A stretch of 64,000 nt of DNA from an uncultured Candidatus Saccharibacteria bacterium (GTDB taxonomy: Bacteria; Patescibacteriota; Minisyncoccia; Phycocordibacterales; DATDWN01): assembly GCA_964391455.1 (NCBI GenBank), contig CAYMJQ010000002.1:12688-76687 (forward strand), in the 5' to 3' direction. The translations under genes and the position numbers were made by a program. The notes beneath the pieces were generated by a model, which saw nothing but the letters and a program-made list of their open reading frames with translations, was not told the DNA's origin and searched no databases. Shown here piece by piece: positions 1,359-41,572 of this stretch (positions are counted from its first letter, which is position 1; every line of letters starts with the position of its first letter).

Positions 1359-2597
1359 TTATTTGGTCAAATCTAAGCTCCACAAAGATCCATCTCTTTT
1401 ATTTATAAACACTAAAAACTGTTCGTTTGTTGAAAGTATAGGTTTTATTACATCTATCGCTTCACCCCCCTCTGATTCAAGGTTTGAAATTATTTGGGAA
1501 GTTAAGTTTAGAGTATCAAATACCCAAACATCATCACTATATTGAACCAAACCTTTATACCAATTTGTTAGACTTCCACTCCTTATTACATCCCTAGGTA
1601 CTGCACAGTATATTATGTTTGTGTCTTCGTTACTCCAAACACATTTTTCTGGAAATGTTTCTGGGGTTAAGAGACTGTTTGTTTTCTGGTTGTTATCGTA
1701 TAAAAACATATTAAATTCTGATCCTTGTCTTAAATATAAAATCTTTGAAGCATTATTATTTACCAAAGAAGAAAGACCTTTTATGTTGCCTAGTATTTTT
1801 CTAAAAGAAGCGTTTGTTACATCCAAAAAATACAAGAACCCGTCAGTTCCCTCTTCTGGTTTTGTGTTTAGTGCAACAATTCTAGAGTTAACGTATTGAG
1901 AATTAAATTCTTTTACAGGAGAGTTAATTACTAGTATTCTGTTTCCACCACTAAAATTTGATGTGTACCCAATAGAACCATTTTGACTTTTCTCTATATA
2001 AAATACACTATTGTTAAAAACAGATAAATCATAAATGTTTGCCGGGAATGCTATTCCAGATACAGTATTTTCAGTAGTGGTGCTTATCTCTCCAAGTGTT
2101 ATAGAAAAAGTATCTACAGTTTCATCATCATCTTTCAAGTATCTTGCCATTATGGAATTTCCATTATTTCCCCAGACAGCATCATAAATTCTTGGTATTG
2201 TTGTATTAGATATCCTGCCTTGTCTTGGAGAGAACAATTCTACCTCAAATATGTGTCCGGTAGCTTTTTCTATATAACGAACTATCGTCCCTGCTCTTAT
2301 ATCCAAAACTCCTGCCCCAGCTACAGGTTCAGAAGATATTTTTCTCAGTCTTTTTTGGAAATCCGTATTTTCCTCTTCGTCTATTATTGGATTTTCTTCT
2401 GGAAAATTATTATTATCTATTAATCCACCATCTTCACCCCCGAATGGGAAAAAGTTTTTAAATACATTTGTGATACCCCCATCTGTTTGGGGATTTCTTG
2501 TTCTTGTAAAATAATACCCTATAAGTACAGCAAGTATTATGCTTAGTACAACAAATATTATAATGTAGGTTTTTTTTGACATGATTTTTAAGTGCAA
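1359..2597 (-). CDS. hypothetical N-terminally anchored exported protein, last gene of the T4SS-like operon
   Basis: A 412-aa protein with a single N-terminal TM helix followed by a Ser/Thr/Asn-rich extracytoplasmic domain. Its start overlaps the stop of the upstream gene (2588/2597), indicating translational coupling. Confidence 0.5.
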   Translation of the reverse strand: MHLKIMSKKTYIIIFVVLSIILAVLIGYYFTRTRNPQTDGGITNVFKNFFPFGGEDGGLIDNNNFPEENPIIDEEENTDFQKRLRKISSEPVAGAGVLDIRAGTIVRYIEKATGHIFEVELFSPRQGRISNTTIPRIYDAVWGNNGNSIMARYLKDDDETVDTFSITLGEISTTTENTVSGIAFPANIYDLSVFNNSVFYIEKSQNGSIGYTSNFSGGNRILVINSPVKEFNSQYVNSRIVALNTKPEEGTDGFLYFLDVTNASFRKILGNIKGLSSLVNNNASKILYLRQGSEFNMFLYDNNQKTNSLLTPETFPEKCVWSNEDTNIIYCAVPRDVIRSGSLTNWYKGLVQYSDDVWVFDTLNLTSQIISNLESEGGEAIDVIKPILSTNEQFLVFINKRDGSLWSLDLTK

Positions 2598-3553
2598 GAA
2601 TTAGGTGCATTTACCTGATAATTATATACTGAAAAATGAGGTGCTGTTATTCTCGGTCTACCTGTTTGTGGGTCAGGTCCTATAACACGTATCGGTCCCC
2701 TATATGGAACAAAAGGTGTACCATCAGGGTTTCTTCTCGGTGTTCTACCATCAATATTTACTGTACTTATTAGATTCCGACACTCTTCAAATGTTGCTAC
2801 TTCAAATACCGGATACATATTACTTTGTCTAGCTTTTTCATAAAAATTATTTAAACCAGAAGGAGATCTGTCTATCGGGTTTCCGTCAATACAAGTCCCA
2901 TTACTATGACAACCAGATTGGTGTTGTACCGTTTGATTATAACCACCTTCCGTTATATACCAAGTACCTTCCCCCATTAATGCGTGGAAATTTTGAAGAT
3001 TTTGCATCATTCCTGCTGATACCCCAGAGTGAGATGCTCTAAGAGCGGGTAATCCTGATCCAGCAAAAGGAACACATCCACCAGGGCACCCAGTCGGTGG
3101 TATAACAGGGATTACAGGTGAATCTGTCGGCTCGACAGTAGGTCTTTCTATAAGAATATTAAAGCTTAGTATCTGGGGGTTTATTGTATTAAGAATAACA
3201 TATGAACCTATCACCAAAAGCAATCCTAGAACCGCATTTTCTATGTATTCTCTTCCTTGTTGTTTGCCACTTAAAGCGTCAGATGTTGCATATAGAACAC
3301 CACCTAATGTAATAAAAATAAAAGCCAAAGCAACAGCAATTCCAACAGTTAAATTAAACGCTGCTGGCAGGTAGGTACTAAGGTTTGTTCTTCCGTTTTC
3401 AGCACCTATACCTGGAAGAGGTGCTATAACCTCATAATCTCTTGGTCCTGTTGGCTCTGTTTGTGCAAAAGAAAAAGAAAACAAACTAAAAAACAAAAAA
3501 ACAGCTATAAATATTTTTATAAAAAAACTTTTTTTTGTTAAATTATTTTTCAT
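2588..3553 (-). CDS. VirB2/TrbC-like pilin-type membrane hairpin fused to a Cys-rich C-terminal domain
   Basis: Signal peptide, then two hydrophobic helices separated by a short loop (…LPAAFNLTVGIAVALAFIFITLGG…GLLLVIGSYVILNTI…), as in the T4SS pilin architecture. A ~180-aa Cys/Gly/Pro-rich soluble domain follows. Confidence 0.45.
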   Translation of the reverse strand: MKNNLTKKSFFIKIFIAVFLFFSLFSFSFAQTEPTGPRDYEVIAPLPGIGAENGRTNLSTYLPAAFNLTVGIAVALAFIFITLGGVLYATSDALSGKQQGREYIENAVLGLLLVIGSYVILNTINPQILSFNILIERPTVEPTDSPVIPVIPPTGCPGGCVPFAGSGLPALRASHSGVSAGMMQNLQNFHALMGEGTWYITEGGYNQTVQHQSGCHSNGTCIDGNPIDRSPSGLNNFYEKARQSNMYPVFEVATFEECRNLISTVNIDGRTPRRNPDGTPFVPYRGPIRVIGPDPQTGRPRITAPHFSVYNYQVNAPNSCT

Positions 3554-4593
3554 TATCTTTTAAATGTTAAATTTACACTCCTTGTTGAAGATTGGAGTAG
3601 TTTTTCTAAATTTTCTATAGACAAAGATATGTTAGATGTTCCAGAAACCCCTTCTTGTTTTCTAAATGTCTGATTTCTGTCACCCTGAACAGAAACAGGA
3701 GTTCCGTTTATTAACCATTTGTAGAGCATGGACTGATCGTTGTTTTGGTTATCAAAAAAATAAGGAACAGCGTGTATTGATATTTCGTTGGAATTTCCAA
3801 AATCTTCTTCCGCAACTAAGGCTTTTTGAAACTGTATACCATAGACTGGGTCTTTTTTATAAAACTGTATTGTTGGTTCATTTGGTATTAGTGTAATATT
3901 TGCAAAACCTAAACCAGGTCCAGTTTGAGGTGTAACCTCAACAGATATATTGATATTTCTTGATATTAAAGGACTTTCAAATGTATAAACATTTTTACCG
4001 AATCCAGAAGCACTTTCAATAAAGGATCCGTTTCTTGTCCACCGGTAAATCATATTTCTAGGATTCATTTCTACACCATTTTCATTTCTTATGTGCGGTA
4101 TGGCTATTATTGATATTGTGTTTTGGTGTGAAAAAAGAGCTTTTCCTTTATAAAATGGTGGAACATAACCACTACTTTGCCATATTAAGTCTACACTTGT
4201 TGGGACAAAAGAATAGTTTTTTTCTATAACAGAGCCAGAGCTTCCAGTCGCTGTTATATCAAGATTTGTTCTCTCCCCTTCTCTCCCCATTGTGAAACTG
4301 AAATTTTTCTCACCAATACCACTTTTTATTACTCTTCCATTAACTCTCCAAGTAAAATTTAAAGAATCAACATCTAAGGAAAAACTTTTTGCGGTAACAT
4401 AAACAAGTTCATTTGCTTTTGGTATTTCCGGAACAAATTCAATGATTAAGTTTGTGTCCGAATTACTAAAAACTTGAGAATTTACCGTACTATTTAATCC
4501 AAAAAATAATACAGTTATTAGAAATAAAATAGAAAAATATCTCATGTTTATAATAATATCATAGTCTAAATTTTGTGTTTTTTTGTTATTCAC
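3553..4593 (-). CDS. secreted hypothetical protein (T4SS-locus)
   Basis: A 346-aa protein with an N-terminal signal/TM segment and a mostly beta-rich Asn/Ser/Thr composition. It overlaps its neighbours by 1 nt. Confidence 0.5.
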   Translation of the reverse strand: MNNKKTQNLDYDIIINMRYFSILFLITVLFFGLNSTVNSQVFSNSDTNLIIEFVPEIPKANELVYVTAKSFSLDVDSLNFTWRVNGRVIKSGIGEKNFSFTMGREGERTNLDITATGSSGSVIEKNYSFVPTSVDLIWQSSGYVPPFYKGKALFSHQNTISIIAIPHIRNENGVEMNPRNMIYRWTRNGSFIESASGFGKNVYTFESPLISRNINISVEVTPQTGPGLGFANITLIPNEPTIQFYKKDPVYGIQFQKALVAEEDFGNSNEISIHAVPYFFDNQNNDQSMLYKWLINGTPVSVQGDRNQTFRKQEGVSGTSNISLSIENLEKLLQSSTRSVNLTFKR

Positions 4594-4595
4594 AA

Positions 4596-4973
4596 TTAAT
4601 TCTTGATATTTTTTGTTGCCACATTAATTCCCTTTGCTAACAAAGGGTTTTTTTCTGCTAAATCTTTTACTCTGGTTGTTGCTATTAAGAAAACTACAGC
4701 TACGGTCCATCCTGGAAGTATGTTTATATAAGGTATGGTTTCAATTAACCAACCTAAACCTAAGGAACCTAGTCTTTTTAAGGTTATCATATTTATTCCA
4801 TACATATGGAACCATAACCAAAATGTCATAAATACAAAAAAACTTACAATAGCTGCAAGTATATTACCCACAAGTGGTATCCAACCCGTTAAAGCTTGAA
4901 GGGTGTCAAAAAATAACGCTGTAAGAGTCATCAAAAAACCCGTGCCGAATTTTATTTGTGTTTCCTTTTTCAT
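4596..4973 (-). CDS. small polytopic membrane protein (T4SS-locus)
   Basis: A 125-aa protein with 3-4 predicted TM helices, immediately downstream of the VirB4 ATPase gene. Confidence 0.5.
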   Translation of the reverse strand: MKKETQIKFGTGFLMTLTALFFDTLQALTGWIPLVGNILAAIVSFFVFMTFWLWFHMYGINMITLKRLGSLGLGWLIETIPYINILPGWTVAVVFLIATTRVKDLAEKNPLLAKGINVATKNIKN

Positions 4974-12681: not shown

Positions 12682-13497
12682 TTAAGCGTTCCTTATCAGA
12701 AAGTCATTCATTTTAGTTAGTATGTTTATAAAAATAGATGAATTTTGGGTGTAATTACCAAATGCATCAAAAAGTCTTATAGGGTCATCTAATCCAATCT
12801 TCATATTTTCTAAATTAAACAATATTGCAGAGGATATATTTAATAACTCTAAGTGTACAGAAATAGCTTTTTCAGGCACCTCCATGTTCAGTAGATATTT
12901 TATAGTTGATTTGTTGATTGTAATTACAGAGTCAAGTTTCTTTAATTCTTCCTTATTTTCTGTACTTACAGCATTTGCAAATACTAAAATAGGATCATCA
13001 TAGATACTATAGTATATAGGTTGTATTGCTTCGTTTACACCCTCTTTGTATCTTTTCATTGTTTCAGAATCTGATTTTGTTGTAACTTTTAGGTTTTGTC
13101 TTATGTATGTTACTGGTTTTTGGTTGTATTCAGGAGAAGAAAGGGTTTTGGCCGCTATTTCAAAAGCTTTTTCTTCGGTGATTTGTTCGCCATTTCTAAC
13201 AGTTAGTAAATATTGAGATAGGAAATCTCTAGAAAGTTGATCTGTTAATGTCGCTCCTTCAGTTTCAGTTAAGTCCAAAGTTAGGTTTTGAAATGGGGTT
13301 TTTTGTTCAACAGTACTTAGAATTTTTTTCCAATCAACATCGGAGTTTTCTTTTGTTTGTATTGCAGGCATCAATGTTCCACCATCATCGTTTTTTATAG
13401 TAATTTTTTCATTATTTAAATTTTTATTAGACAACCAAACAGAAACAACTAGACCTAAACATAATATAAAAGTAGCTATAATTTTATTATTAGGCAT
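12682..13497 (-). CDS. N-terminally anchored hypothetical protein
   Basis: A 271-aa protein with one N-terminal TM helix and no recognised domain. It is the first gene downstream of the UbiA-fusion gene and may mark the operon start. Confidence 0.45.
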   Translation of the reverse strand: MPNNKIIATFILCLGLVVSVWLSNKNLNNEKITIKNDDGGTLMPAIQTKENSDVDWKKILSTVEQKTPFQNLTLDLTETEGATLTDQLSRDFLSQYLLTVRNGEQITEEKAFEIAAKTLSSPEYNQKPVTYIRQNLKVTTKSDSETMKRYKEGVNEAIQPIYYSIYDDPILVFANAVSTENKEELKKLDSVITINKSTIKYLLNMEVPEKAISVHLELLNISSAILFNLENMKIGLDDPIRLFDAFGNYTQNSSIFINILTKMNDFLIRNA

Positions 13498-21262: not shown

Positions 21263-22162
21263 CTATTTTACTTGTCTGTTTAACACTATTTTACCAGCTA
21301 TAGCTGATAGGATACCTTCATTTCTGGTTATAACTAGAGTTTGTCTATCTATAAATGAATATAAAACAAGAGGATTTCCATTTTTATCTTTCAGTATTCT
21401 CATATCTCTATTTTTTGCTGTTTCATCTATGAAAACATTAGATGATTCATCAAAGTTCTCGTTTAAAATGTCAAAAAATCCATCTAAATCGTATGCCATA
21501 TCACTTTCCCACTTTAACATTCCCGAATAAGCTAAAGGAAAATCATCTACAGTAAGTATTATGAAGGTTTCATTTGTATCAAATGAATATATTCCCAACA
21601 TATAATCTTTTCCAAAAGATCTTTGAAGTGAAGGAAGCATATTTGGTCCAATTATGCTTACTACTTTTTCAATACTCCCCTCTTGTTTTTCGGAAGAAGT
21701 GTTTATATAAAGAACCGAATTTACAGTGCTACCCCAAGATTGTTTATTTTCGGTAATTAGATTTATTAGGTTTTCTCTGTTTAATTCAGTATCAGAAATA
21801 TTTCTCTCATCAGAAAAAGTTACAAGAGTTTTTGGATTTTGATTTATGTTTATACCATCATTTGGGTTTATTATATACAGTGCTAAAAAAGAAATTATTC
21901 CCAATAATATAAAGGTGGTTCCAAGCACTAGATATGTTTTATTTTTTACTTCAGATTTTTTTTGTAAATCTGCGATTTCTGGTCGCTCTATTTTTCTTTT
22001 TTGTTCCGAAACCAATACAGTTGTGGCTGAATATTTATTTTTTGAAATAGCTTCTTGAACATCACCTTGGAAGGTTCTCAAAGATTTTATAGGAACTCTC
22101 TCGTTCTTAAGAGTCTCTTTTTGTTCTTCGTTGTTTGTTTTTTGATTTTGTTCAGGATTCAT
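21263..22162 (-). CDS. hypothetical single-pass membrane protein
   Basis: A 299-aa protein with one TM helix near residue 80 and no recognised domain. Confidence 0.45.
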   Translation of the reverse strand: MNPEQNQKTNNEEQKETLKNERVPIKSLRTFQGDVQEAISKNKYSATTVLVSEQKRKIERPEIADLQKKSEVKNKTYLVLGTTFILLGIISFLALYIINPNDGININQNPKTLVTFSDERNISDTELNRENLINLITENKQSWGSTVNSVLYINTSSEKQEGSIEKVVSIIGPNMLPSLQRSFGKDYMLGIYSFDTNETFIILTVDDFPLAYSGMLKWESDMAYDLDGFFDILNENFDESSNVFIDETAKNRDMRILKDKNGNPLVLYSFIDRQTLVITRNEGILSAIAGKIVLNRQVK

Positions 22163-23685: not shown

Positions 23686-24615
23686 ATGGCTTCACTAAAA
23701 CAACTTAAACAACAATTTTTAGAATATGTTGAGATAGAAAGAGGTCGTTCTGTGAAAACAATAGAGAATTACGACCATTACCTATCGGTTTTTCTTGAAT
23801 TTTTAAAAAAAGATAAGCCTGAAGACATAACAGATGAAAATGTAAGGATGTTTCGTCTCTGGCTTAACCGTCGTCCTGTTGGTAAACATGGTCAAACAGT
23901 AACCAGAAAGACTCAGAACTATTATCTCATTGCCCTAAGGGCATTTTTGAAGTATCTAGCTAGGCAAGAGATAAAAACAATGCCAGCAGAAAGAATAGAG
24001 TTGGCGAAAACAACTGAAAGGTCTTTGGATTTAATAACCCAAGAAGAATTAAATAGGATTTTAGAGGCGCCCAATGGAAATGATGAAAAATCTTTAAGAG
24101 ATAAGGCTATACTAGAGCTTCTTTTTTCTACAGGTCTTCGTGTGTCGGAGCTATGTTCCCTACCTCGTGATATAAATCTTCGTTCGGATGAGCTTTCTGT
24201 GAAAGGTAAGGGTGGAAAAATAAGGGTAGTATTTTTATCAGAAGAAGCCAAAAGGTGTGTAAAAAATTATTTAGACAAAAGAAAAGATATGAACGACGGC
24301 CTTTTTGTGAGAATAAATCAAGATTTAGATAAAAAAGGTTCTAAAACAACAACAATAGATAAAAAAAATAATCTAGATAGAAGGTCTATAGAAAGAATAG
24401 TCAGGCATTACGCGATAAAAGCTGGTGTGTCTAAAAAAGTTACTCCTCATACATTAAGACATTTGTTTGCAACAGATTTACTTTCTAACGGAGCTGATTT
24501 GCGTTCAGTACAAGCACTTTTGGGTCACTCAAGTATTTCTACAACTCAAATATATACACATGTCACAGATAAACACCTGCGTGAAGTTCACAAAAAATTC
24601 CATAAAAAAAGTTAA
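23686..24615 (+). CDS. xerC: tyrosine site-specific recombinase XerC/XerD family
   Basis: The C-terminal catalytic motif HTLRHLFATDLL…LLGHSSISTTQIYTHV and an N-terminal SAM-like domain. Confidence 0.85.
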   Translation: MASLKQLKQQFLEYVEIERGRSVKTIENYDHYLSVFLEFLKKDKPEDITDENVRMFRLWLNRRPVGKHGQTVTRKTQNYYLIALRAFLKYLARQEIKTMPAERIELAKTTERSLDLITQEELNRILEAPNGNDEKSLRDKAILELLFSTGLRVSELCSLPRDINLRSDELSVKGKGGKIRVVFLSEEAKRCVKNYLDKRKDMNDGLFVRINQDLDKKGSKTTTIDKKNNLDRRSIERIVRHYAIKAGVSKKVTPHTLRHLFATDLLSNGADLRSVQALLGHSSISTTQIYTHVTDKHLREVHKKFHKKS

Positions 24616-30470: not shown

Positions 30471-30541
30471 GCGGGATTAGTTTAGTGGTAGAATGACTGC
30501 CTTCCAAGCAGTATACACCAGTTCGATTCTGGTATCCCGCA
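30471..30541 (+). tRNA. tRNA-Gly (anticodon UCC)
   Basis: gcgggat-ta-gttt-agtggta-gaat-g-actgc-cttccaa-gcagt-atac-accag-ttcgatt-ctggt-atcccgc-a. It is 71 nt and very similar to bacterial tRNA-Gly(UCC). Confidence 0.85.
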
Positions 30542-30735
30542 CAAAATAAAATCCCCGAATGGGGATTTTATGTTGAGGATACCAGAATCGAACTAGATAG
30601 AGTTCGGGAAAGAAAGTCTTTCCCGTGGAGGAAGGCAACGAGCGGAGCGAGTGTTGGAAAACCGAGGGTTTCCAAGGAGTGAGATATCTGGTATCCCGCA
30701 CACGAGAAGCCCGAAAGGGCTTTTTATTGTGTGTG
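30542..30735. repeat. tRNA-Gly 3'-end-derived direct and inverted repeats framing a GC-rich structured element, with flanking terminator hairpins
   Basis: The 15-nt direct repeat ctggtatcccgcaca occurs at the tRNA 3' end and again at about 30684. An inverted near-copy of the T-arm and acceptor (gaggataccagaatcgaact) lies at about 30574. Hairpin plus T-run terminators sit at 30549-30572 and 30705-30730. Confidence 0.45.
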
Positions 30736-31273
30736 GAATAAGCAAAACATTGTTTTGCGTCCAGAATCGAAAGACGGAGCGGGTACCAGTTCAGCAGAAC
30801 TGGTCGTGAGTCGAGGTTGTTCTCTACAGTTTCATTTATTGTGTTATAATTTGGTAATTGTGAATACAATTACCTCCGGTCAAAAGTTTTTTTATAATTT
30901 AATTGCTAATGTAGTTTTTCTACTGCATTTATTTCTGGTTTTGGTGGTTTGTATTGGTTGGGCTTTTCCTTCTTTGTTTTATCTATTTTTATTTCTACTT
31001 TCAATAACAGCTCTTTCTGAAATTTTTCTAGGATATTGTATTTTAACTAAGTGGGAATTTAGTTTAAGAAAAAAAATTGATCCAAGTAGACAATTTGATA
31101 CATCATGCATATTTCATTATGGTAGAGCCATGTTCGGATTAGGACCAAGGGTTCCAACTAATAAAAAAGAAGCCGGATTTTTCAAAAAGTATTCATCACT
31201 TCTAGTGTTACTACTACCTTTATTAGGAGCTATTCTGGTTAAGTTTGGGCCAGGGACTTTACAAAATTTTTGA
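30731..31273 (+). CDS. small polytopic membrane protein resembling DUF2784 (C-x-LT-x-WE motif); N-terminus uncertain
   Basis: The C-terminal two-thirds (…LHLFLVLVVCIGWAF…SEIFLGYCILTKWEFSLRKK…) looks like a real membrane protein. The track start overlaps the tRNA-derived element, so the true start is probably an internal GTG or TTG (30806 or 30860). An extended -10 tgtgttataat lies at about 30841. Confidence 0.4.
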   Translation: MWNKQNIVLRPESKDGAGTSSAELVVSRGCSLQFHLLCYNLVIVNTITSGQKFFYNLIANVVFLLHLFLVLVVCIGWAFPSLFYLFLFLLSITALSEIFLGYCILTKWEFSLRKKIDPSRQFDTSCIFHYGRAMFGLGPRVPTNKKEAGFFKKYSSLLVLLLPLLGAILVKFGPGTLQNF

Positions 31274-31284
31274 TAGGAGTAATA

Positions 31285-31452
31285 TTTAACACGGAGGTTC
31301 ATCGGGGTCTAGCCACTGTGCTCAAGTCCACGCTAAGTGAAAACTGGTCCGGATTTTCCGGATAAAGGACCACAATAAATGTGGACTCGCGGTGCACTTG
31401 CACCCCAAAGAACACCGGCTGAGAGTTGCTTCGGCAGCTCTCAGCCTTTTAT
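31285..31452 (+). ncRNA. candidate structured RNA / elaborate 3'UTR ending in a UUCG-loop terminator
   Basis: A GC-elevated block with nested stems (agtccac…gtggact enclosing ggtccgg…ggacc). It ends in the ggctgagagttgc-ttcg-gcagctctcagcc hairpin plus T-run (31417-31452). A second, bidirectional terminator follows. Confidence 0.25.
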
Positions 31453-38345: not shown

Positions 38346-39509
38346 TTATTCAATAACAATTTCAGGTTCTGTTTCATTTTTCTTGTCTTCTTCTGATTTC
38401 CCAGTAGATTGGATATCAATTTTCCAACCTGTAAGTTTGGCAGCAAGACGTACATTTTGACCACCCTTACCTATAGCAAGAGATTGTTGGTCTTCAGATA
38501 CACTTACAGTTGCTTGTTTTTCTTCTTCATTTATTTTTACATCAAGGATTTTTGCTGGAGATAGTGCGTCTTCAATAAATTTCTTAGAGTCTTCAGACCA
38601 CTCTATTATGTCTATTTTTTCACCTCCTAGTTCTGACATAACAGTAGAAACACGAACACCACGTTGACCAACCATTGATCCAACTGGGTCTATGTGTGAA
38701 TCGGTCGAAGATACTGCTATTTTAGTCCTTGACCCTGCTTCTCTTGCAATAGATTTTATTACTACTGTTCCATTAACAATTTCTGGAGTTTCAGCTTCAA
38801 AAAGTTTTTCTAAAAATTTAGGGTGTGAACGTGAAAGTCTTAGAAATACTCCTTTCCCAGATTCTTCTACTCTATATAAGTAAGCCCTAACTCTTTCTCC
38901 CTGACCAAATCTCTCTCCAGGAATTTGTTCTTCATAAGGAAGAAGTCCAGTTGCTCGTCCCATATCAATAAATATATTACCTCTTTCTATTCTTTGAACT
39001 GTTCCAGTAACAATTTCTCCCTCTTTTTCACCATACTGAGATATTATAGAGACTTTTTCCGCTTCTCTTATTTTTTGCATAATAACTTGTTTTGCTGTTT
39101 GAGCTGCGATTCTGCTGTAGTCATCTTGTGCTTCAAGAGGGAAAATCATTTCCTCTCCGAGAGTAACATTTTTTTTGATTCTTCTGGCATCGTCTATCAT
39201 TATATGGTGTTCTGGATTAAATAAATCTACAGTAGGTTGTGTATCTTCTGCTGAAGGGTCAAATTCCGGCAAATCTTCTTCGTTCATAACAACAGTAGTA
39301 TCATCAACCACTTTTTTGACCTGAAACATCTCTGTTTTTCCAGAGTTCATATCGAATTTTGCTCTTATTATTTGTCCTTTTTTACCGTATTCTTTTTTGT
39401 ATGCTGTAGCTAGTGCAAGCTCAATAGCCTCGATTATTTTTTCTCGAGGGATACCTCTCTCTTCTTCTAGTTGAGTTAGGACACTACCTATTACTTTTAA
39501 GTCAATCAT
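38346..39509 (-). CDS. nusA: transcription termination/antitermination factor NusA
   Basis: An N-terminal domain, an S1 domain and two KH domains with a characteristic sequence; 387 aa. Confidence 0.9.
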   Translation of the reverse strand: MIDLKVIGSVLTQLEEERGIPREKIIEAIELALATAYKKEYGKKGQIIRAKFDMNSGKTEMFQVKKVVDDTTVVMNEEDLPEFDPSAEDTQPTVDLFNPEHHIMIDDARRIKKNVTLGEEMIFPLEAQDDYSRIAAQTAKQVIMQKIREAEKVSIISQYGEKEGEIVTGTVQRIERGNIFIDMGRATGLLPYEEQIPGERFGQGERVRAYLYRVEESGKGVFLRLSRSHPKFLEKLFEAETPEIVNGTVVIKSIAREAGSRTKIAVSSTDSHIDPVGSMVGQRGVRVSTVMSELGGEKIDIIEWSEDSKKFIEDALSPAKILDVKINEEEKQATVSVSEDQQSLAIGKGGQNVRLAAKLTGWKIDIQSTGKSEEDKKNETEPEIVIE

Positions 39510-39817
39510 ATTATTTTTGAAAGTTTTTTGAATTAATTTTTAATTTTTTTCTTAAAAAAATGGCCCGCCCTGTGGCGAACTTCAATAAAATAATAATACA
39601 CCCTATGTATAATTTTGTCAATCGAAGCTTTGCCTCAGATTATATGTAAGTCTCTGGCGGTAATACTAAAAAATTTTTATTTATGAAATCTTTTACACAT
39701 TTTTGGAGCGTTACAAAAAAAATTTTGATATAATATTATGAAAGAATGGTGATAAAATCATAACTAATATTGAATTATACAAAATGTAGTAATTCATAAT
39801 TCTTTATTCAACCCATT

Positions 39818-41572
39818 ATGCACATAGAAGAATCACAGTTAAAAAATTTTATTTTGGATTCTGGTCTTGTTTCAAAGACAGATGTAGAGTCTGCTGAAAA
39901 AGAAGCAAAAGAAAACAATAGTAATATAGGAAAGATTCTTGTAAACAAAGGCAAACTTACAGAGGACGATCTTCGTCGTATGCAGGCATATATATTAGGT
40001 ATACCTTTTGTTGATTTAAAAAAAGAAAAATTACCTTTTGATGTCCTTTCTTTAATACCAGAACCAATTGCTAGAAACCATAATATAGTTGCTTTTAAAA
40101 AAAGCGATTCCGCTCTGGAGGTTGCCATGCTTGATACAGAAGATTTGACCGCTATTGATTTTGTAAAAAAGAAGACTGGTTTGAAAATTCTACCTAGACT
40201 GACCGATGATGATTCAATGAAGAGCGCTATTTTGCAGTATCAAAAAAGCCTTAAAGCTGAATTCGGAGATCTTATTGCGGAAGATGTGAGTAATATAAAA
40301 AATATTCCAAATGGAGATGGAGACGTTGATTTAAATGAACAAGACTTGAAGAAAATGGCAGATGATGTGCCAATGATAAGAATAGTTGATACCTTACTTA
40401 AACACGCTATTATTCAAAACGCTTCAGATATACACATAGAACCACAAGAAAAAGAACTTTTGATTAGATATAGAATTGATGGACTTTTGCATGACGCAAT
40501 GATTTTGCCTAAAAATATGGCACCTAGTGTTGTTGCTCGTATAAAAGTATTGTCTTCTCTTAAACTCGATGAAAAAAGACTTCCGCAAGATGGAAGATTT
40601 AAAATAGATTCAGATGGTGAAAAGGTTTCTTTTCGTGTTTCAACGCTACCAACTTATTATGGTGAAAAAATCGTGATGAGACTTTTACGTGAAAATGTAT
40701 CCGGATTTACTTTGGAATCTCTGGCCTTTCATGGTGAAGGTTTGGATAGGATACATAAAGCGGTTAAATCTACTACGGGGATGATTTTAACTACTGGTCC
40801 GACTGGTTCTGGAAAGACAACAACTCTTTATACTGTATTAGATATTCTAAATACTCCAGATGTAAATATATCTACCATTGAGGATCCTATTGAATATCAA
40901 ATGAAAAGAGTTAATCAAACTCAAGTTAGGCCAGAGATAGGTTTCACTTTTGCTTCTGGGCTTAGGACTTTAGTTAGGCAAGACCCAGATATTATCATGG
41001 TCGGTGAAATTCGTGATGGCGAAACAGCTTCACTTGCGGTTAACGCTGCACTTACTGGTCACGTAGTTCTTTCTACACTTCACACCAACTCAGCTGCAGG
41101 TGCTATACCCAGACTTATAGATATGAAAGTAGAACCTTTTCTTTTGGTGTCTACTATAAATATAATTATTGGACAAAGATTGGTAAGAAAATTAACAGAC
41201 CAAAAGGAAAAATATAATTTAACTAAAGCAGAAATAGACACTTTGGGTAAATCAATAAATCTAGATAAGGTTTTGGATGCCTTAAAATCAGAAAAGATAA
41301 TAGGTAAAAGTGATAAATGGGAAGACATATCTTTTTATCGTCCAAAAACAGGTGTTAATCCAGAGGAATGTTTTTCTGGAAGATCTGGTATTCACGAAAT
41401 ACTTAAAGTTTCTCCAGCTATCAAAGAAGCAATATTAAAATCTGGAACAACAGATGATATTCAAAAAATTGCTGAACAAGAAGGTATGTTAACAATGATG
41501 GAAGATGGAATTTTTCAAGCGGTGCAAGGGTATACCACCATCGAAGAAGTCTTACGTGTTATATCGGAATAA
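39818..41572 (+). CDS. pilB: type IV pilus / T2SS assembly ATPase (GspE/PilB family)
   Basis: The Walker A GPTGSGKTTTLY, the Asp and His boxes, an N-terminal GSPII_E_N-like domain, and a tetracysteine replaced region. Confidence 0.85.
   Translation: MHIEESQLKNFILDSGLVSKTDVESAEKEAKENNSNIGKILVNKGKLTEDDLRRMQAYILGIPFVDLKKEKLPFDVLSLIPEPIARNHNIVAFKKSDSALEVAMLDTEDLTAIDFVKKKTGLKILPRLTDDDSMKSAILQYQKSLKAEFGDLIAEDVSNIKNIPNGDGDVDLNEQDLKKMADDVPMIRIVDTLLKHAIIQNASDIHIEPQEKELLIRYRIDGLLHDAMILPKNMAPSVVARIKVLSSLKLDEKRLPQDGRFKIDSDGEKVSFRVSTLPTYYGEKIVMRLLRENVSGFTLESLAFHGEGLDRIHKAVKSTTGMILTTGPTGSGKTTTLYTVLDILNTPDVNISTIEDPIEYQMKRVNQTQVRPEIGFTFASGLRTLVRQDPDIIMVGEIRDGETASLAVNAALTGHVVLSTLHTNSAAGAIPRLIDMKVEPFLLVSTINIIIGQRLVRKLTDQKEKYNLTKAEIDTLGKSINLDKVLDALKSEKIIGKSDKWEDISFYRPKTGVNPEECFSGRSGIHEILKVSPAIKEAILKSGTTDDIQKIAEQEGMLTMMEDGIFQAVQGYTTIEEVLRVISE

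Follow-up and report, generated by a model that had tools for sequence, protein, structure and literature searches.

A structured element directly 3' of tRNA-Gly(UCC) in Paceibacteria-like bacteria: a candidate RNA with the anatomy of a tRNA-end duplication

Elements with a tyrosine integrase leave attachment-site (att) duplications in the 3' ends of tRNA genes, and cis-mobilizable elements (CIMEs) are integrase-less relics thereof that display tandem accretion. Functional RNA can come from the same position: the 3' external transcribed spacer of the Escherichia coli leuZ operon is cut from a tRNA transcript and sponges small RNAs. Duplications with inverted copies also arise through quasipalindromes and template switching, as in the duplication-triplication/inverted-duplication (DUP-TRP/INV-DUP) type. 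Finally, the bacterial non-coding RNAs that mimic tRNAs include the YrlA-type Y RNAs (PMC4201824). Here we analyze a short element, termed element A, that follows the tRNA-Gly(UCC) gene in a stretch of 64,000 nt (64 kb) of contig CAYMJQ010000002.1 from an uncultured Candidatus Saccharibacteria bacterium; this whole stretch is referred to as the window. Element A belongs to a family that is not catalogued in Rfam 15. In a clade of Paceibacteria-like members of the candidate phyla radiation (CPR), the elements of this family are invariably found directly downstream of tRNA-Gly(UCC) and on its strand. In our view the chances are even that element A is a tRNA-linked, lineage-specific structured RNA of the plus strand, made by read-through of the first terminator (term1), closed by an outermost helix (P0) and kept under purifying selection.

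Along the plus strand, the tRNA in sense orientation is followed by term1, an antisense copy of the 3' part of the tRNA, a sense copy of its 3' end and a second terminator, term2 (Table 1). The two sense ends (DR1 and DR2) form a direct repeat identical at 16 of 16 nt, with a start-to-start distance of 159 bp, and DR1, term1 and element A together make up the repeat-bounded unit of this length. A preliminary description, made from the letters of this DNA, had correctly recognized the tRNA and the direct repeat, while its figure of 15 nt falls one short. If up to three mismatches are allowed, the 16-mer occurs three times in the window against 0.19 times expected, a count that none of 100 shuffles equalled, and the third occurrence is the inverted copy. 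This inverted near-copy of T-arm and acceptor had been described as well and is borne out: the repeat arms (30520-30546 and 30568-30594) comprise 27 nt with 85% complementarity, including 18 nt (GGATACCAGAATCGAACT) that are an exact reverse complement of the tRNA. That the minus strand begins with gcgggat is true, yet this is simply the complement of the direct repeat and carries no independent information.

Element A, about 130 nt long, was rightly called GC-rich and structured. Its GC content is 0.51, compared to about 0.33 (~33%) for the window, a low-GC bacterial chromosome segment, and it folds better than shuffled sequences on both strands (z -3.8 on the plus strand, z -5.0, precisely -4.95, on the minus strand). 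In the predicted multi-branched fold, the antisense and sense tRNA copies pair with each other and thereby close the structure, with P0 outermost and the hairpins P1, P2, P3 and P4 inside. P0 is the equivalent of the stacked T-stem and acceptor helix of the tRNA. The left arm supplies the 5' strands of P0 (30577-30586) and P1 (30589-30594), the right arm the 3' strand of P0 (30687-30696), and the 3' strand of P1 is a direct copy of the start of the tRNA T-stem/T-loop. At the position of the tRNA variable region the antisense copy is interrupted by additional hairpins of about 58 nt in total. Between the helices run two purine-rich single strands that are invariant, AGGAAGGCA and CAAGGAGUGAGA. 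The 5' strand of P4, UUGGAAAAC, is the reverse complement of the anticodon loop and stem of the alpha-type tRNA-Gly and thus contains a GGA codon. A longer interior match, AGTGTTGGAAAACCGT.GGTTT, corresponds to the reverse complement of positions 20-41 of the alpha-type tRNA, so that the interior holds an inverted copy of the anticodon arm; 2-7 of 500 shuffles reached this match.

Relatives were gathered with the adjacent protease as anchor, which gave five genome loci; exact-protein look-ups yielded further contigs and a DNA-pattern scan of metagenomes one further locus (L006). The final set comprises 18 distinct loci, the window included. The nearest genomes are metagenome-assembled genomes of uncultured CPR bacteria (Patescibacteria), whose records are labeled Saccharibacteria, Parcubacteria, Paceibacterota or Zambryskibacteria. 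In 18 of 18 loci tRNA-Gly(UCC) adjoins the protease, and in 16 of them a homologous structured element begins right after the tRNA terminator, on the tRNA strand; only the two most distant relatives, L004 and L005, are devoid of any unit. The elements, 130-330 nt in length, come in four interrelated layouts: layout A (window, L002, L007-10, L022 and L023, with an enlarged form in L016), layout T2, in which most of the left arm is deleted (L003, L006, L011, L012-14, L015 and L017), layout T3, with a hairpin inserted in the left arm (L001 and L018), and layout B (L024 and L025, with a shortened copy in the window). Mosaics and relics are common: L015 joins a T2 5' part to an A 3' part and L024 combines B with an A relic and an extra copy of the tRNA end, while a 3' relic of the T2 hairpin stands behind A in L007 and L022.

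The core of element A is 94-96% identical between the window and L002, with all differences located in loops or compensated, and over the 36 nt of P4 and the following strand the window and L016 agree at 100%. The tRNA genes of the compared genomes, in contrast, share 75% identity and the flanking proteases about 60%. The most conserved motif of the family, AAGGAGUGAGAUA, is found in the window, L002, L003, L006, L007, L015, L016 and L022. Other parts are more flexible. In L016, P2 and P3 are replaceable wholesale, the P2 position being taken by another hairpin (GAGAG-GAUA-CUCUC, identified by eye), and the P2 columns were gapped by cmsearch in L015, L016 and L024. The A-type P2 and the long P2 of the T2 type nevertheless have GGTCGGGAAAG in common.

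Helices maintained by compensatory substitutions across species, the generic hallmark of conserved structured RNAs, were found in both major groups of sequences. In alignment A2, which holds four full A-type sequences with helices P0-P4 specified by hand, 90.8% of the cells are paired compared to 30-52% in slid controls, and nine pairs show changes on both sides, a number reached by none of 500 shuffles. Among them, P1 (helix 2 of the pair counts) has U-A in the window and C-G in relatives, and P3 changes from GC to AU on both sides in L007 and is exchanged for a fully Watson-Crick hairpin in L022. A compensatory change from U-A to G-C was seen in P4 of L024. With seven sequences (A-type plus L015, L016 and L024; alignment A5), 17 pairs carry double changes, again matched by 0 of 500 shuffles; for L016 the covariance-model alignment was used, since its large insertion misaligns in MAFFT. 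The covariance model itself, built from the A-type sequences and searched against both strands of 167 kb, gave exactly one match per locus, always on the tRNA strand, and none elsewhere. Alignment A3, eight T2/B sequences, was folded by RNAalifold without supplied helices. It nonetheless delivered a tandem-G·A hairpin (C-stem, bulged G, G·A/A·G pairs, stem) and the long P2 hairpin; 12 of its 23 predicted pairs show compensatory changes (0 of 500 shuffles), and 97.8% of the cells pair compared to 33-51% when the partners are slid.

The same alignments bear on the strand. A G·U wobble is kept in eight of eight T2/B sequences, where 13 G·U or U·G cells stand against zero A·C, and in the A-type P0 seven G·U cells in plus orientation stand against one A·C. 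This excess of G·U over A·C indicates a molecule that runs in the same direction as the tRNA. Of the two, the T2/B wobble is the stronger argument, because the events in P0 are few and partly shared by descent.

Both arms furthermore track the local tRNA. Its T-stem exists in three variants, GCGG/CCGC in most loci, CCAG/CTGG in the window and GGGG/CCCC in L024 and L025, and whichever is present recurs in the right arm and in the left arm next to the tRNA. In L002 and L022 the antisense match to the tRNA extends over 21 nt without a mismatch, and the direct repeat of L006 measures 17 nt. A difference in the T-loop (GACTCC vs. GATTCC) is mirrored in the arm of five loci, but not in L023, where the tRNA has changed and the arm has not and whose protease is the same as that of L022. 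Arm-like pieces deeper in the arrays are non-cognate, namely CCAGAATCGAACC in L024 (tRNA GGGG) and CCCGGGATCGAACC in L017.

Table 1. Features of the tRNA-Gly(UCC) locus, in window coordinates.
Feature	Position	Strand	Basis or remark
tRNA-Gly(UCC) gene, no encoded CCA; T-stem CCAG/CTGG	30471-30542	+	ARAGORN tRNA-Gly(tcc); Rfam RF00005, 71.4 bits
DR1, last 16 nt of the tRNA plus trailer, TCTGGTATCCCGCACA	30528-30543	+	exact direct repeat with 30687-30702
term1, bidirectional intrinsic terminator, AAAAUCCCC-GAAU-GGGGAUUUU	30546-30571	both	-16.6 kcal/mol on +, -16.2 kcal/mol on -
Left arm, reverse complement of tRNA T-loop, T-stem 3' strand and acceptor 3' strand	30574-30595	+	18-nt exact inverted match
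P1 hairpin, CGAACU-AGAUAG-AGUUCG	30589-30606	+	predicted fold
P2 hairpin, GGAAAGA-AAG-UCUUUCC	30607-30623	+	predicted fold; invariant in four A-type loci
Purine-rich joining strand, CGUGGAGGAAGGCA	30624-30637	+	AGGAAGGCA invariant in four A-type loci (alignment A2)
P3 hairpin, ACGAGC-GGA-GCGAGU, tandem G·A/A·G pairs	30638-30652	+	double changes at 4 of 6 pairs
P4 hairpin, UUGGAAA-ACCGAGG-GUUUCCAA	30654-30675	+	36 nt 100% identical to L016
Conserved strand, AAGGAGUGAGAUA, Shine-Dalgarno-like	30674-30686	+	from the final two bases of P4 to the start of the right arm
Right arm = DR2, direct copy of tRNA T-stem 3' strand, acceptor 3' strand and CA	30687-30702	+	exact repeat; helix 1 of the pair counts
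term2, intrinsic terminator, GAGAAGCCC-GAAA-GGGCUUUUU, outer CACAC/GUGUG extension	30704-30730	+ only	terminator scan
Element B, shortened second unit, left arm GTGTGTGGAATA	30729-30812	+	repeats D5 and I5; BLAST matches to L025 and L024
Inserted hairpin of element B, GCAAAAC-AUU-GUUUUGC	30742-30758	+	
T-stem/T-loop complement of element B, CCAGAATCGAA	30761-30771	+	second CCAGAATCGAA copy of the region
Tandem-G·A hairpin of element B, GAC-G-GA-GCG...CGU-GA-GUC	30773-30812	+	homologous helices covary in alignment A3
DUF2784 gene promoter, TCTACA, 16 nt, TGnTATAAT	30823-30850	+	promoter scan; DUF2784 is a Pfam match

The two flanking terminators, likewise part of the preliminary description, both fold into the GC-rich hairpin with U-run that characterizes intrinsic terminators. 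term1 forms the apex of a long palindrome (30520-30594) built from the tRNA 3' part and the left arm, and the corresponding long hairpin (30516-30598) reaches -46.7 kcal/mol with a z-score of -10.5; a simple terminator scan missed term1, probably as its stem reaches into the A/U tracts. term2 has -16.2 kcal/mol and a U-run on the plus strand, compared to -10.2 kcal/mol and no U-run on the minus strand. It lies directly past the right arm and works on the plus strand only, matching the expected end of a plus-strand transcript.

Several observations nevertheless weigh against a selected plus-strand RNA. No promoter emerged from the scan in the stretch that leads from term1 to the left arm, and term1 itself appears competent to terminate; consequently, such an RNA would depend on read-through of term1. 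Not every member can require P0, since the left arm is largely gone in the T2 subtype. The shortened relics and mosaics (B in the window, the 3' relic of L007 and L022, L015, L017 and L024) resemble decaying DNA, and the near-identical A core in distant hosts could reflect recent transfer instead of constraint. The statistics have their limits as well: each subtype is represented by 4-8 distinct sequences, the shuffle controls ignore phylogeny, and the sequences of A5 were fitted to the covariance model. Moreover, template-switch 'correction' within DNA palindromes can mimic compensatory changes without any selection at the RNA level. On the other hand, the preliminary description had itself proposed that the same arrangement in all relatives, supported by covariation, would favour a functional RNA over an integration scar. 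To a large extent this is what we see, with the element in 16 of 18 loci, compensatory changes and strand-specific G·U pairs, and a genuine tRNA-associated structured RNA is therefore favoured over a dead scar.

If element A is indeed such an RNA, its anatomy suggests that it originated through an inverted and a direct duplication of the tRNA 3' part around a terminator hairpin, either by template switching during replication or by recombination at the tRNA 3' end, and was exapted later. RNA polymerase starting at the tRNA promoter would pass term1, transcribe the element and stop at term2. In the predicted lowest-energy fold of this read-through transcript, the tRNA 3' part is locked onto the left arm and the 5' acceptor strand of the tRNA is paired with DR2; thus sense and antisense copies can compete, while in vivo the tRNA probably folds first. 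The released RNA might then fold with P0 closed, so that its anti-tRNA strand of 18-21 nt would be masked by a tRNA-mimicking partner, and the conserved purine-rich strands and the G·A hairpin may provide a binding surface for a protein or RNA partner. As to function, we infer it from the conserved parts alone: the masked anti-tRNA strands, the two invariant purine-rich strands and the tandem-G·A hairpins. Complementarity of the masked strands to the 3' half of tRNA-Gly(UCC) would make the maturation, quality control or sequestration of this tRNA or of its 3' fragments the likeliest arena. One might go further and speculate about a tRNA-specific riboregulator, whose antisense copies of the anticodon loop and of the T-arm/acceptor 3' strand, each covered by its sense 'mimic', would capture unfolded precursors or 3' halves of their own tRNA by strand exchange, or would couple terminator read-through to tRNA folding. 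The arms would then co-evolve because pairing is their function. We regard this specific version as doubtful. A sponge for CsrA, considered on account of the GGA motifs, finds no support in the window, which contains no CsrA-like open reading frame (ORF).

A serious competitor, though in our estimate unlikely, is the att-type scar favoured by the preliminary description: an att-flanked, CIME-like relic of a small site-specific element that recombined into the T-loop/3' end of tRNA-Gly(UCC). The incoming element would have brought DR1 and term1 and pushed the original DR2 and term2 downstream, and tandem accretion of such units would account for A followed by B; the folded core would be borne by the element, as an RNA or as a fold of single-stranded DNA. 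Element B, a second unit beyond the region of that description, lacks the long P2 and has its homologue in the first unit of L025 and L024. In alignment A4, these two loci line up collinearly with the window, their tRNA 3' end, terminator and B corresponding to its DR2, term2 and B; consequently the window looks like their layout plus one extra repeat-bounded unit of 159 bp, as in the contrast of an occupied and an empty site. L025 and L024 indeed possess tRNA end, terminator and B without the A unit, and L004 and L005 have no unit at all, but all these loci represent different genera and not alleles. Further support comes from the exact 16-nt repeats that bound the unit (17 nt in L006), from the arrays of units and relics with their non-cognate arm-like pieces, from the variable genes downstream of the tRNA, from the scattering of the element types over the protease tree and from an A core that is far more similar between hosts than their tRNAs are.

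What speaks against integration is the lack of any machinery or source. No integrase or transposase was detected at the 18 distinct loci by Pfam searches of the neighbours and of 20 further window ORFs. The sole tyrosine recombinase of the window, an Xer-type protein of 309 amino acids (aa; 23686-24615, plus strand), scores above the XerA cut-off and under the XerC and XerD equivalog cut-offs. It is encoded 6 kb from the tRNA, outside the repeats, and followed by an Exo_endo_phos nuclease gene, and no homologue was found within the fetched stretches of relatives. A phage origin was rejected, as BLAST against phages matched only the tRNA and RNase Y, and five pattern scans of a viral contig collection returned no real copy, merely one chance match inside a coding region of L021. 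Neither BLAST nor the covariance model revealed a second copy of the element, be it within the 64 kb of the window or across the 167 kb searched; the preliminary description had advised a search of the genome for such copies. In addition, term1 and the arms are lineage-specific and only a core of about 100 nt is shared, which is unexpected for a simple element that carries attP, and a dead scar would not keep its helices by compensatory changes together with a conserved G·U pair. Thus, of the scar hypothesis, the tRNA-derived repeats around a 159-bp unit and the variable downstream genes hold, whereas the integrase is missing.

Neutral palindrome dynamics are a further, rather improbable explanation. 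Template switching would have grown the terminator hairpin into nested copies of the tRNA 3' end, and quasipalindrome correction would keep the arms matched, with nothing selected as RNA. The sense-antisense-sense layout centred on hairpins fits this idea, as does the behaviour of the arms: those near the tRNA or DR2 match the local tRNA, more distant arm-like pieces do not, and in L023 a tRNA change has not yet been copied into the arm. However, correction within a genome cannot produce 94-100% identity of P2, P4 and the 3' strand between hosts with about 60% protein identity. The P4 of the window retains its alpha-type sequence even though the anticodon arm of its own tRNA differs, and a G·U wobble in eight of eight sequences is the opposite of what palindrome correction would leave behind.

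Very unlikely is a gene on the minus strand, from about 30702 to 30574, which would represent a degenerate convergent tRNA-Gly pseudogene or a tRNA-like RNA ending at term1, with anticodon-arm and T-arm/acceptor 3' sequences in tRNA order and an insertion of about 58 nt at the variable loop. The inverted copy does span tRNA positions ~20-41 and 51-72 in the right order, term1 terminates both ways, and relative to its shuffles the minus strand folds slightly better (z -4.95). Yet scans for cloverleaf or tRNA-like domains with ARAGORN and the Rfam CL00001 models (E up to 10, both strands), a check already recommended for this locus, found only the genuine tRNA, and a tRNA-like or tmRNA gene on the minus strand was rejected since ARAGORN and the Rfam tRNA and tmRNA models remained silent. 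The P1 stem ties up the T-loop sequence, the 5' partner of the acceptor carries mismatches, the G·U pairs would turn into A·C mismatches, and the promoter scan found no promoter on the minus strand. The tRNA-derived miniature inverted-repeat transposable element (MITE), a short non-autonomous transposon offered as an alternative in the preliminary description, can practically be dismissed: the terminal inverted repeats of 10-14 bp and the flanking 16-nt direct repeat exist, but both are copies of the neighbouring tRNA that change with it in each host, and there is one copy per locus, at the same site and in the same orientation, with none elsewhere in the window or in the 167 kb.

The structured RNA that we favour has, as far as our searches reached, no catalogued counterpart. 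Rfam 15 gave no family match for the element, whether the window, the element itself at E up to 10 or eight related loci were searched; what it returned was limited to tRNAs and to chance matches of hairpins, which fell far short of the gathering scores. Nor did the literature that we searched contain a description of such an element.

Around the tRNA-Gly(UCC) locus, Pfam identified housekeeping genes, namely a trypsin-like protease, RNase Y, HU, ClpP, trigger factor, the CCA-adding enzyme and YraN, and ARAGORN counted four tRNA genes in the window. The DUF2784 promoter marks the right boundary of the element region and lies outside the element itself. In relatives, an extended -10 element immediately precedes the DUF2784 ATG, and the gene appears to be leaderless and served by its own extended -10 promoter. 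We consequently rejected the element as a DUF2784 leader or small ORF, as the start codon is not conserved and DUF2784 has its own promoter. On the plus strand, the DUF2784 ORF shares an open frame with the right arm, term2 and unit B (30683-31273, preceded by the TGA at 30680); this is probably a coincidence, given that the ATG of relatives lies just past their own -10 element.

The downstream side of tRNA-Gly(UCC) is a variable spot among the relatives. Between element and HU, L002 (2914-4649) encodes a 275-aa ORF of no assigned family and an epimerase-like ORF, L006 (6313-7428) a YibE/F membrane protein and many loci DUF2784, while L001 and L003 have nothing there. In L004 (~4515-4765) and L005 (~4285-4605), on the minus strand of these loci, an ASCH/DUF3850 ORF with a PUA-like RNA-binding fold begins 1-4 nt past tRNA-Gly(UCC) with no terminator between them, and is apparently co-transcribed with the tRNA. 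L022 and L023 encode an identical protease protein but differ in the T-loop (GATTCC vs. GACTCC), the variable region and the left arm, which suggests fast turnover or strain-level recombination at the locus.

Some further features came to light. A candidate small RNA lies between DUF2784 and HU (31262-31452, plus strand), with a promoter (TTTACA, 16 nt, TAATAT), an irregular long hairpin of about 125 nt and a strong terminator (-73.2 kcal/mol, z -6.7); its position and promoter are common to L012-14, L017 and L025, and it has no Rfam match. Apparently non-coding, unannotated gaps of 260-370 nt separate element and HU in L016 (~1218-1587), L017 (~1343-1632) and L025 (~1405-1669). Those of L017 and L025 contain a CCCGCAC-like motif and then a terminator at the end, and none of the three matches Rfam. 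The cumulative GC skew has its minimum at about 39500-39800 of the window, and gene orientation flips from mostly minus on the left to mostly plus on the right between nusA (38346-39509, minus) and an ORF at 39818 (plus). This is possibly a replication origin, in which case tRNA-Gly(UCC) and its element would be oriented head-on to replication. Three successive minus-strand ORFs of 412, 321 and 346 aa (1359-4593) have no Pfam match at E up to 1e-5, and the same holds for the ORFs at 12682-13497 and 21263-22162.

CPR genomes are tiny and have little spare DNA, so that a non-coding module of 130-330 nt kept at one tRNA across genera is likely functional. If it acts as RNA, it would constitute an uncatalogued family with an unusual design, as its ends are templated on the neighbouring tRNA and co-vary with it, and it could indicate tRNA-specific regulation or quality control in organisms with a minimal translation machinery. 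If it is a mobile mini-unit instead, recombination at tRNA 3' ends would shape CPR genomes without a linked integrase. Either way, duplication of a tRNA end is by itself no proof of an integration scar.

Compared to the known systems, the locus resembles att and CIME relics in several respects: its insert lies between direct repeats of the tRNA 3' end, the tRNA itself has stayed intact, another tRNA end with a terminator follows downstream, and there are tandem units as well as differences between relatives. In contrast to such relics, no integrase is nearby, the insert has just 143 bp and carries an inverted att-like copy, and its interior evolves like a structured RNA without phage or plasmid counterpart. 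Inverted duplications of the DUP-TRP/INV-DUP type share the sense-antisense-sense order centred on hairpins and the arms matched to the neighbouring template; they would account for the origin of the element, but not for cross-species conservation or the conserved wobble pair. With T-box riboswitches the element shares segments complementary to one specific tRNA, both to its 3' region and to its anticodon loop (UUGGAAA, which includes the GGA codon). It differs from them, as it has no T-box sequence, Stem I architecture or Rfam match, its complementary segments are masked in helices, and no regulated gene follows, DUF2784 having its own promoter. Like the YrlA-type Y RNAs and the tRNA-like domain of tmRNA, it joins its 5' and 3' ends in a helix with acceptor- and T-stem-like sequence. 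Unlike these, it has neither a T-loop nor a D-arm mimic, its acceptor end is not conserved, Rfam (E up to 10) returns no match for it, neither a Ro/Rsr nor an SmpB context was seen, and it mimics the sequence of the neighbouring tRNA, not the general tRNA shape. The leuZ spacer is a short linear segment, whereas here a full intrinsic terminator intervenes and tRNA-derived strands build a multi-helix fold of 130-330 nt; both nevertheless lie right behind a tRNA gene, share its strand and have no promoter of their own, and element A, too, would come from the tRNA transcript.

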